From NCBI GenBank assembly GCA_039808105.1, contig JBDHSN010000001.1:1-59461 (forward strand): a stretch of DNA of 59,461 nucleotides, given 5' to 3'. Shown in pieces: positions 1 to 15,449 of this stretch. Within the stretch, counting starts at the first letter, position 1. Every line of letters begins with the position of its first letter. Below the pieces are notes generated by a model. It worked only from the letters and a program-made list of their open reading frames with translations. It was not told the DNA's origin and ran no database searches. The translations under genes and the position numbers were made by a program. The DNA comes from Rhodospirillales bacterium. Its GTDB lineage: Bacteria > Pseudomonadota > Alphaproteobacteria > Rhodospirillales > Defluviicoccaceae.

Positions 1-491
1 TCGTCGAAGTGCAGCGCCGCTTCCTCCTCGACCTTGATCGAATAGCCGAGGAACATCTCGACGCTGGTCATCTCCAGCCCACCCTTGAAGGTCCCGGCGG
101 CAGTGGACATCGCCGGACGCTTCGCCGGCAGCGTCTCGTCACCCTCGAAGCAGACGAGAATGTCCTCGTTGCGAACGATGTACTGGCAGGCGAGGCGGTA
201 GCGCGACGGCACGTCGTAGACTTCGGCGTTTTCCAGTTCCGCGGCGGTGATCTTGCCGAGCTGACGCAGCATTTCCTTTTCTTTTTCTTGCATGTTGACG
301 CCCATCTTCTCGCCTTCGTCGAGACGCGTCACCTCGATCAGGCACGAGCCGCATTCGCCGTCGCCGCAGTCGAACGGGATCGGAATCCGGTGCGCCCTGG
401 CGAGCGACAGAAGGCTGCCGCGCTCGCCGGCAACGGCGTAGACGGTGACGTCCTTCGCCATGACCGGCGAGCGGAAGGTGATGTTGGCCAT
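1..491 (-). CDS. FeSII/Shethna-II-like [2Fe-2S] ferredoxin with a C-terminal extension resembling a rubrerythrin/ferritin-like domain (3' end outside the window)
   Basis: Translated by hand; absent from the ORF track because there is no stop in the window. MANITFRSPVMAKDVTVYAVAGERGSLLSLARAHRIPIPFDCGDGECGSCLIEV...YDVPSRYRLACQYIVRNEDILVCFEGDE...EMTSVEMFLGYSIKVEEEAALHFD. Cys at 42/47/50/102. AAGGA SD upstream of the ATG. Confidence 0.85.
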   Translation of the reverse strand, partial: MANITFRSPVMAKDVTVYAVAGERGSLLSLARAHRIPIPFDCGDGECGSCLIEVTRLDEGEKMGVNMQEKEKEMLRQLGKITAAELENAEVYDVPSRYRLACQYIVRNEDILVCFEGDETLPAKRPAMSTAAGTFKGGLEMTSVEMFLGYSIKVEEEAALHFD

Positions 492-614: not shown

Positions 615-631
615 AGCAAGCGCCATGCCAG
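615..631 (-). promoter_or_regulatory. sigma54 (-24/-12) promoter of the FeSII-like gene
   Basis: Minus strand reads CTGGCATGGCGCTTGCT, i.e. GG-N10-GC, matching TGGCAY-N5-TTGCW. Confidence 0.8.
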
Positions 632-693: not shown

Positions 694-741
694 TGTCCCG
701 AATCCGACAGACCGCCGGACGCCCCTGTCCGGAACGGAACA
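694..741. promoter_or_regulatory. Two NifA-type upstream activator sequences (TGT-N10-ACA)
   Basis: TGTcccgaatccgACA at 694-709 and TGTccggaacggaACA at 726-741, 32 bp apart and upstream of the sigma54 element. Confidence 0.75.
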
Positions 742-14470: not shown

Positions 14471-15449
14471 GCCGCCTCATCCGCCGGAAAACATCCCGAA
14501 GGGCACCACTTACACTGTCGTGGTCGAGCCCGACAAGGCAGGAAGCCGCCTCGACCGCCTGCTCGCCGACAGCCTGCCAGACCTCTCCCGCACCCGGCTG
14601 CAGGCGCTGATCACCGGCGGCCGCGTCGCGTCCGGTCATGGCACGGCCGACGATCCGGCGATGCGGGTACGGCCGGGACAGGCCTTCACCGTCACGGTGC
14701 CGCCGCAGCCCCCGGAAATGCCGCAGCCGCAGGCGATTCCTCTCGACGTGGTTTACGAGGACGAGCACCTGCTGGTGATCGACAAGCCGGCCGGCCTCGT
14801 GGTCCATCCCGGCGCCGGCAACCCCGACGGTACCCTGGTGAATGCGCTGCTGGCGCATACCGCCGGCAAGCTCTCGTCGATCGGAGCGCCGTTGCGGCCG
14901 GGGATCGTCCACCGCATCGACAAGGACACCAGCGGGCTGCTGGTGGTGGCGAAAACCGATGCGGCTCACCGTGATCTGGCCGAGCAGTTCGCCCGGCACT
15001 CGGTGGAGCGTGCCTATCACGCCATCGTGGCTGGCCAGCCAAGGCCGCCATCTGGAAAGATCATGCGTGCAATTGCGCGTGGCCCCGATCGTGTACGCAT
15101 GACGACGGTGGAACGCGGCGGCAAGCCGGCGGTTACATACTACCGAACGATGGTCGCTTACGGCGCGCGGGCCAGCCTTGTCGAGTGTCGGCTGGCGACC
15201 GGCAGGACGCATCAGATCAGGGTACACATGGCGTTCATTGGACATCCGATCGTCGGAGATGCAGTCTATGGCAAAGGTGGCACAAGGCTTGCTCAGAGGA
15301 ACATCAGTGCCGCACCGGGTTTTTCGCGTCAGGCGCTTCACGCCTGTTTGATAGGGTTTCGCCATCCCGATACCTTTGCCACGCTGCGGTTTCAATCAGC
15401 GATGCCGACTGATATCAATATCTTAATTAGAACTTTAGAGTGTCTTTAA
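14469..15449 (+). CDS. rluD: RluA/RluD-family pseudouridine synthase
   Basis: S4 domain (RLDR..LSRTR), IDKPAGLVVHPG, HRIDKDTSG and TGRTHQIRVH. Start approximate. Confidence 0.92.
   Translation: MPPHPPENIPKGTTYTVVVEPDKAGSRLDRLLADSLPDLSRTRLQALITGGRVASGHGTADDPAMRVRPGQAFTVTVPPQPPEMPQPQAIPLDVVYEDEHLLVIDKPAGLVVHPGAGNPDGTLVNALLAHTAGKLSSIGAPLRPGIVHRIDKDTSGLLVVAKTDAAHRDLAEQFARHSVERAYHAIVAGQPRPPSGKIMRAIARGPDRVRMTTVERGGKPAVTYYRTMVAYGARASLVECRLATGRTHQIRVHMAFIGHPIVGDAVYGKGGTRLAQRNISAAPGFSRQALHACLIGFRHPDTFATLRFQSAMPTDINILIRTLECL
15278..15293 (+). promoter_or_regulatory. Candidate sigma54 promoter inside rluD, upstream of rpoH
   Basis: TGGCACAAGGCTTGCT, a full -24/-12 consensus about 265 nt before the rpoH ATG. 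Confidence 0.45.

Follow-up and report, generated by a model that had tools for sequence, protein, structure and literature searches.

Does a single polypeptide at this locus join a nitrogenase-protecting ferredoxin to a domain that itself meets the oxidant? The gene in question lies at the left edge of the window, i.e., the whole stretch of 59,461 nucleotides analyzed here; contig C1 of a 3.4-Mb Rhodospirillales genome (309 contigs in all) begins with it. The original prediction held that a minus-strand ORF at this edge encodes a ferredoxin resembling FeSII (Shethna protein II) of Azotobacter vinelandii, that it continues past residue ~120 into a rubrerythrin/ferritin-like domain, and that such a protein could combine conformational protection of nitrogenase with sensing or scavenging of reactive oxygen species. 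We assign a probability of about one half to the reading that the fusion is a NifA-induced oxygen guard for Mo-nitrogenase, in which the ferredoxin would dock on NifH and a putative iron site in the second domain would react with O2 or H2O2. Three things are shown below: both domains, the promoter motifs, and the association with nif genes.

The features of the gene within the window are as follows.

3..491, minus strand: 5' part of the FeSII/ferritin-like fusion gene, residues 1-163 of 299 aa (from the ORF, the join to contig C66, and database protein P0003)
138..491, minus strand: residues 1-118, a [2Fe-2S] ferredoxin domain of the FeSII type with the long N-loop (C42, C47, C50, C102)
78..137, minus strand: linker, residues 119-138, in place of the free PGGA C-terminus of FeSII (model confidence about 60)
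3..77, minus strand: first 25 residues (139-163) of the ferritin-like domain, in helix A, which carries E155 and the fusion-specific H161; this segment is the overlap with C66
500..504, minus strand: Shine-Dalgarno-like AAGGA, 8 nt before the ATG (from the sequence)

The ORF begins with an ATG at 489-491 on the minus strand and runs for 163 codons to the window edge with no stop. All of the ferredoxin motifs quoted in the original prediction are present from position 491, including the cysteines at 42, 47, 50, and 102, and there is an additional C114. The GC3 is coding-like throughout (0.85 over the ferredoxin part, 0.89 over the extension). The first 77 nt of the window are also the last 77 nt of C66; this 77-mer is found at these two places alone, and 77-nt contig-end overlaps are usual for this assembly (187 cases). 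Extending the contig leftward through this overlap, C66 supplies residues 139-299 and the stop codon (residues 164-299 and the stop at L001:15910-16395, minus strand), with no early stop past the window edge, which gives a complete product of 299 aa across the two contigs. The predicted run into a second domain is thereby borne out. In addition, P0003 contains both gene pieces letter for letter, and a 659-nt contig from another DNA study is identical over positions 1-458, with ~200 nt beyond the part aligned to the window. A contig-end artefact or read-through is excluded by the unique 77-nt overlap, P0003, and this further contig. We also rejected the longer N-terminus annotated in P0003 (344 aa), because that start shares sequence with the sigma54 site described below and because homologues start with MAN/MSN.

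The genes around this copy are housekeeping genes, and it lies outside any nif cluster. An operon with the downstream chaC gene was considered and rejected, as the arrangement is seen in the closest relative only, and no terminator-like site was found. Public sequencing runs that match the locus are mostly sludge metagenomes; in the 4 of 24 matching runs that were aligned to it, all of the data are contigs, and those from RNA runs also span intergenic DNA. In a study of Defluviicoccus genomes, nifHDK is present and the lifestyle is one of alternating anaerobic and aerobic conditions (PMC9041414).

The ferredoxin domain

Residues 1-118 align with A. vinelandii FeSII without gaps, with 56 of 118 residues identical (47%) and the same cysteine spacing. 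Pfam Fer2 matches the ORF at E = 3e-9, and a PDB sequence search gives FeSII at E = 4e-31. In the AlphaFold2 model of the full fusion (pLDDT 75, pTM 0.51, with the domain orientation not fixed by the model), the N-domain fits FeSII structure 9CU1 with a Z-score of 20.2 and an rmsd of 1.1 Å over 117 residues. Both the ungapped alignment and this fit contain the long N-loop insertion with its two helices (hN1 and hN2), which is absent from other adrenodoxin-type ferredoxins. The references for FeSII were the A. vinelandii and A. beijerinckii proteins (PDB 5FFI, 8RHO, 9CU0-2, and 9IEY; PMC11754109). The fit is best to 9CU1, which is nitrogenase-bound, and could thus be read as a "pre-locked" fusion. 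We rejected this reading, because a control model of A. vinelandii FeSII prefers the same conformer (rmsd 1.6 Å), i.e., the conformer is a default of the predictor, and the fit is evidence of fold only, with no functional weight.

In a quick tree (77 rows, 122 columns, many forks poorly resolved), the long-loop ferredoxins split from ISC-type outgroups with a support of 99. Membership among the ISC/adrenodoxin ferredoxins is excluded by this split together with the fdx_isc score, which is far below the cut-off (13.8 bits versus 132). Within the long-loop group, the fusion N-domains form one clade (SH-aLRT 87), which also contains 4 short database representatives and is distinct from the Azotobacter FeSII clade (99); they do not branch inside the latter. 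The predicted grouping with FeSII instead of adrenodoxin/ISC ferredoxins is thus supported at the level of the long-loop group. Given the ungapped identity, the PDB search, the fold match, and the separation from ISC outgroups, the N-domain of the fusion belongs to the FeSII sequence and fold family.

This genome carries two further stand-alone FeSII-like ferredoxins, on contigs C85 and C50 (L002:1240-1596 and L003:2427-2780, both minus strand), which are 36% and 30% identical to the N-domain and belong to a distant clade, in which a gene of the non-nif genome G026 is also found. Genomes G004, G008, and G009 have a similar-scoring FeSII-like gene on the nifD contig, 10-15 kb away. In G052, a flavodiiron-protein gene and a small ferredoxin gene are followed by an FeSII-like gene of 115 aa, between nifB and draG (L125:13854-15832, minus strand), and this module is a candidate further oxygen-defence set within a nif cluster.

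The fusion itself is widespread. A family search restricted to proteins of at least 287 aa gave 891 matches among 1565 candidates, and both the Fer2 and the Rubrerythrin Pfam marks are present in 120/120 of the matches listed. The 42 genome loci that we collected come from Rhodospirillales, Methylocystis, Skermanella, Azospirillum, Bradyrhizobium, Pelomonas, Derxia, and others. Database names go no further than "rubrerythrin/ferredoxin" or similar, the ESM Atlas offers unnamed ferritin/rubrerythrin-family clusters and nothing more specific, and literature searches of openly readable texts listed no paper on this fusion.

Which nitrogenase-facing residues does the family keep? Across 115 fusions, the predicted [2Fe-2S] ligands C42, C47, C50, and C102 are invariant, and so are R24, D44, E71, D93, R99, and the linker residue P122. 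K70 is retained in 113 and position 76 is R or K in 114; E41 and E118 of FeSII are each an invariant Asp, R72 is an invariant Lys, and N73 is Glu. Over the redox-switch and NifH-contact set (E41, D44, K70, E71, R72, K76, R99, E118), the residues are therefore identical or of the same charge in 113-115 of 115 fusions. Several FeSII positions are lost, namely K63 (Y, M, C, or H in the fusions), K53 (E or Q), N73, R92, and the free A122 carboxylate; K16 is replaced by Thr, and position 62 is K or R in 88/115. In contrast, within the Azotobacter clade (114 sequences), K63 is found in 114 and K53 in 109, and P119-G121 are invariant. The fusion is also acidic, with a net charge of -7 versus 0 for Azotobacter FeSII.

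The switch and interface residues of FeSII were named by Franke et al. (PMC11754109). In that paper, K63 forms a salt bridge with NifD, K53-D93' is a dimer contact, R24 faces NifD, and the A122 carboxylate is positioned over the NifH cluster in the locked complex. The K53-D93' contact and the R92-A122' partners are both altered in the fusions. The same source describes FeSII as fully buried within the locked particle, which would leave little room for an extra domain of 160 aa. Since the fusions form a separate clade and have lost the free A122 carboxylate, K63, and K53, Azotobacter-style filament locking is uncertain for them. Not all nif-linked members carry PGGA, however: the stand-alone ferredoxin relatives encoded directly behind nifK end near residue 115 without it.

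Modelling with NifH, proposed as a check on the original prediction, gave weak support. The complex of residues 1-140 with NifH2 of this genome scores an ipSAE of 0.37 (best control 0.00), with a contact agreement of at least 62% and a partner pLDDT of at least 70. The mark applied to such models was reached by 116/157 solved pairs and 2/215 mismatched pairs; at 0.60 or under, where this score falls, it was reached by just 18 solved pairs and by both mismatches. The pass may also reflect likeness, because like complexes are already solved structures. The fusion resembles FeSII in fold and probably also in docking on NifH.

The ferritin-like domain and its putative metal site

The Pfam Rubrerythrin model (PF02915) matches the part encoded on C66 with E = 1.8e-13 (51.5 bits versus a cut-off of 22.8). 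Residues 139-299 have their best sequence match in 2OH3 (E = 4.7e-18), a stand-alone, uncharacterised COG1633 protein of Magnetospirillum magnetotacticum. The modelled C-domain has four long helices, with the protein ending after helix D, and fits 2OH3 with a Z-score of 15.4 and an rmsd of 4.4 Å over 145 residues. The second domain, of which the window holds the beginning only, is thus a full four-helix bundle of the ferritin-like superfamily, of the COG1633/2OH3 type, in agreement with its tentative initial assignment.

The putative metal site departs from what a rubrerythrin, with two ExxH motifs and hence two bridging carboxylates, would predict. Of the expected E...ExxH pair of diiron motifs, the second is intact (EEAEH, E275xxH278), but the first reads SxxH (YSRLH). 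Its Ser188 aligns with the ExxH Glu of TM1526/1VJX and is Ser in 113/115 fusions; 2OH3 shares this SxxH. Rubrerythrins further have a rubredoxin domain and, three residues beyond the helix-C ligand, an extra Glu. In the fusions, the extra Glu position is G or A (G248 in 113/115), and an N-terminal [2Fe-2S] partner stands in place of rubredoxin, although rubrerythrin likewise pairs a small iron domain with a bundle. The NCBIfam rubrerythrin model scores 14 bits versus a cut-off of 200, and no NCBIfam ferritin-family match near the cut-off was found for the fusion. A canonical rubrerythrin is excluded on its ligands, Ser188 replacing the first bridging Glu and Gly the extra one. Altogether, the fusion lacks three features of Azotobacter-type FeSII (the free PGGA end, the K63/K53 contacts, and membership in the clade) and two of rubrerythrin.

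The remaining ligand set is strongly conserved. E155, H191, E245, E275, and H278 are invariant in the 115 fusions, likewise E274 and Y252, and E221 is present in 114; these five canonical ligand positions together with E221, E274, and Y252 are nearly invariant in both fused and separate forms. By contrast, H161 distinguishes the two forms: it is His in 115/115 fusions versus Arg in 30/33 separate matches, the single His among the latter being the C66 half of this very gene. E277 is conserved mainly in fused forms, and the pattern of H161 and E277 suggests a fusion-specific contact or ligand. RbrA of Anabaena heterocysts is a rubrerythrin-type diiron peroxidase, but such activity cannot be assumed for the fusion, because Ser188 replaces the first bridging Glu. 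Sulerythrin (PMC12851003) shares with the C-domain the four-helix bundle and the E, H, E, ExxH ligands; its E92 and E95 are the helix-C ligand and the extra Glu three residues on. In its E126A variant, from which one bridging Glu has been removed, two Fe(II) are still bound and hydroxide-bridged, and O2 reacts faster than it does with the unaltered protein, at 11.4 compared with 3.1 per M per s. A diiron site is thus possible in the fusion despite Ser188, since sulerythrin E126A keeps its two Fe(II).

A second, stand-alone ferritin-like match lies nearby in 24/42 fusion loci. Elsewhere in two genomes (G000 and G057), stand-alone ferritin-like paralogues are encoded directly behind 2-oxoacid:ferredoxin oxidoreductase genes (L118:1100-1543 and L123:6502-7781, both minus strand), and this adjacency hints at a low-potential electron source for the ferritin-like family.

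Two alternative readings turn on the residues described above. In one, the protein would act purely as a scavenger, with the FeSII-type domain serving as an electron input that feeds the ferritin-like site from NifH or ferredoxin for the reduction of O2 or H2O2, and with no shielding or locking. In favor of this reading, K63, K53, and the free C-terminus are gone, an electron carrier fused beside a four-helix metal site recalls the rubredoxin of rubrerythrin, and a distant ferritin-like paralogue adjoins the oxidoreductase genes in G000 and G057. FeSII itself can accept an electron from NifH at 12.5 Å (PMC11754109). We nevertheless regard this reading as unlikely, given that the N-loop switch (D44, K70, E71, D93, R99) and the NifD-facing R24 are almost invariant, that nifK-adjacent stand-alone relatives also lack PGGA, so that its loss need not mean lost protection, and that the metal site is degenerate.

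In the other, the protein would protect nitrogenase conformationally as FeSII does, and the C-domain would be redox-inactive (e.g., with one metal or none), serving for dimerisation or as a scaffold in place of the lost dimer contacts. This would account for the missing bridging Glu, for the changed K53-D93' and R92-A122' partners, and for H161 and E277, whose conservation mainly in fusions is what an interface would show; the stand-alone ferritin-like matches in 24/42 loci also fit. However, the near-invariant ligand positions together with E221, E274, and Y252 point to a real metal site, and separate ferritin-like genes are retained in nif operons, which makes a purely structural C-domain improbable.

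Promoter layout and the link to nif genes

Upstream of the ATG of the fusion gene lie three promoter features.

616..630, minus strand: sigma54 (-24/-12) promoter consensus, ~125 nt upstream of the ATG
694..709, no strand: NifA-type upstream site TGT-N10-ACA, ~78 nt upstream of the sigma54 site
726..741, no strand: second NifA-type site TGT-N10-ACA, ~110 nt upstream of the sigma54 site

The consensus for NifA-regulon promoters is a sigma54 -24/-12 element with TGT-N10-ACA about 80-110 nt upstream. The window contains only two TGT-N10-ACA sites, both upstream of the sigma54 site of the fusion; since 3.5 would be expected anywhere in it, their position, not their number, is the signal. Sigma54 consensus matches are more frequent than expected (2 observed versus 0.25). 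Genome-wide, 3/18 strict sigma54 sites have TGT-N10-ACA upstream, namely those of the fusion gene, nifB, and iscA-nifV, and nifH has two TGT-N10-ACA sites upstream without a sigma54 site by the pattern used. Among 57 distinct fusion loci, a sigma54 site occurs in 26, an upstream site in 41, and the full layout (within 350 nt) in 20, versus 0/57 in each of two in-gene controls. Judged by these motifs, the fusion gene has a promoter layout of the NifA-regulon type, as at nifB and iscA-nifV. The other strict sigma54 consensus of the window (15278-15292, plus strand) is without an upstream NifA-type site. Positions 640-690, which are flanked by the NifA-type sites and the sigma54 site of the fusion, are 49% AT versus about 32% genome-wide, and this AT-richer stretch could be an IHF bending site.

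The genome carries nifHDKENX on contig C7, nifB on C36, and iscA-nifV on C41, so the nif genes without which the original prediction would have lost its basis are present. Co-occurrence was counted in three samples, in which kin are not independent, so that the counts overstate the association, and two of which include a carrier chosen as centre; for these reasons Fisher tests on the counts carry no weight here. Among 61 relatives, all 22 fusion carriers have nifD and nifH (one carrier holds a broken copy), 11/33 nifD genomes are without the fusion, and 0/8 same-family genomes without nif carry it; 8/22 copies are no farther than about 13 kb from nifH. Among 351 Alphaproteobacteria, 8 genomes match at least one of the two domains, and nifD is present in these 8 and in no others: 3 have the fusion (including this genome), 4 have both domains as separate genes, and 1 has the ferritin-like domain only. 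Among 251 genomes of the family of G428, nifD is present in 13/15 matching genomes and in 10/10 of those with the ferredoxin domain, while 3 nifD genomes match neither domain. The predicted co-occurrence with nif genes thus appears in all three samples, and exceptions arise among distant metagenome-assembled genomes (MAGs). Specifically, 28 of 37 more distant carriers have nifD (27 over the cut-off), and MAGs make up all 9 in which it was not found: nifB or nifEN-type genes are present in 4, nitrogenase-like genes only in 3, and nothing in 2. Distant paralogues of each domain are present in non-nif genomes (G026, G055, G467, and G566).

At the gene level, nif/fix genes lie within 8 kb in only 10/42 fusion loci, and nifS/nifU-like genes are neighbours at some. 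Where the two domains are separate genes, the order nifH-nifD-nifK-ferredoxin-ORF-ferritin-like is found in 3/3 loci fetched, followed by nifE in L129. The ORF between the two split genes is unnamed (L129:2777-3358, L130:4927-5469, and L131:5371-5724) and has no NCBIfam match at 1e-15 in the three genomes. Four fusion MAGs without a nifD match (G411, G423, G434, and G437) have 3-4 nitrogenase-like component genes each, and the G434 copy (L052) is cut at 237 aa. In genome G000, an 817-aa ORF (C124:2052-4505, minus strand; L005:58-2508) joins a reductase resembling NifH/CfbC (both matches below cut-off) with a nitrogenase-component-like domain and is followed by a second component-like gene, i.e., a nitrogenase-like system separate from nifHDK.

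These data bear on two further readings. A general redox protein with no role in nitrogenase, whose link to nif is historical, would suit the housekeeping neighbours at this locus and the 5/37 distant carriers, all MAGs, without a bona fide nif gene, but it is hard to reconcile with the promoter layout and the co-occurrence in three samples, and we consider it highly improbable. Alternatively, the fusion could be a NifA-induced iron store or an Fe-S repair or assembly helper for nitrogenase, with no direct guarding function. The ferritin-like fold, the promoter type shared with nifB and iscA-nifV, the nifS/nifU-like neighbours at some loci, and the split form between nifK and nifE in L129 are all compatible with iron handling. 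Such a role would leave unexplained why the long N-loop of FeSII and its nitrogenase-facing residues are retained, and the NCBIfam search placed no ferritin family near its cut-off; we therefore rate it as quite improbable.

A proposed oxygen guard

We return to the reading favored at the outset, a NifA-induced oxygen guard for Mo-nitrogenase, for which we infer every biochemical step. Judging from the promoter, NifA very likely switches the fusion on together with the nif genes. The ferredoxin would then, rather probably, bind NifH over its [4Fe-4S] cluster in the manner of FeSII and so shield that cluster. Whether the bundle binds iron through E155, H191, E245, E275, and H278, perhaps with E221/E274 and with a solvent bridge in place of the missing Glu, is an even bet. 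More tentatively, an oxidant could react at the C-terminal site and pull an electron from the [2Fe-2S] cluster, a step that would trigger the binding to NifH and divert electrons of NifH into the reduction of O2 or peroxide. Recruitment of NifDK into Azotobacter-like filaments is doubtful and the least certain step. The idea that conformational protection and the sensing or scavenging of reactive oxygen species reside in one protein is accordingly upheld in part: the FeSII switch residues are kept and the ligand set is conserved, but the locking contacts and the first bridging Glu are lost.

How does this compare with known systems? A. vinelandii and A. chroococcum are the only two species in which protection by FeSII has been demonstrated (PMC11301756), and protection of the FeSII type has been proposed for FdxD of Rhodobacter capsulatus and others (PMC11301756, PMC6925177, PMC2607301, PMC12628686). 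FdxD is a NifA-activated "Shethna ferredoxin" that is reported to protect Mo-nitrogenase from oxygen (PMC6925177, PMC11301756); it is a stand-alone small ferredoxin, and we liken it to the fusion by description. The oxidant of FeSII in the cell (O2, peroxide, or the general redox state) is described as unclear in PMC11754109.

The family counts hundreds of database relatives, is associated with nif genes and NifA-type promoters across Alpha-, Beta-, and Gammaproteobacteria, and combines the FeSII fold with a site that is a candidate for reaction with oxidants. It is conceivable, if on balance unlikely, that its members represent a second, widespread class of guard (NifH to [2Fe-2S] to a non-canonical diiron centre), in which one protein would sense the oxidant, consume it with electrons from the Fe protein, and simultaneously shield the Fe protein. 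Both the breadth of FeSII protection and the cellular oxidant of FeSII become testable in culturable Methylocystis, Azospirillum, Skermanella, and Derxia, and the fusion could serve as a one-gene protection part in nitrogenase engineering.
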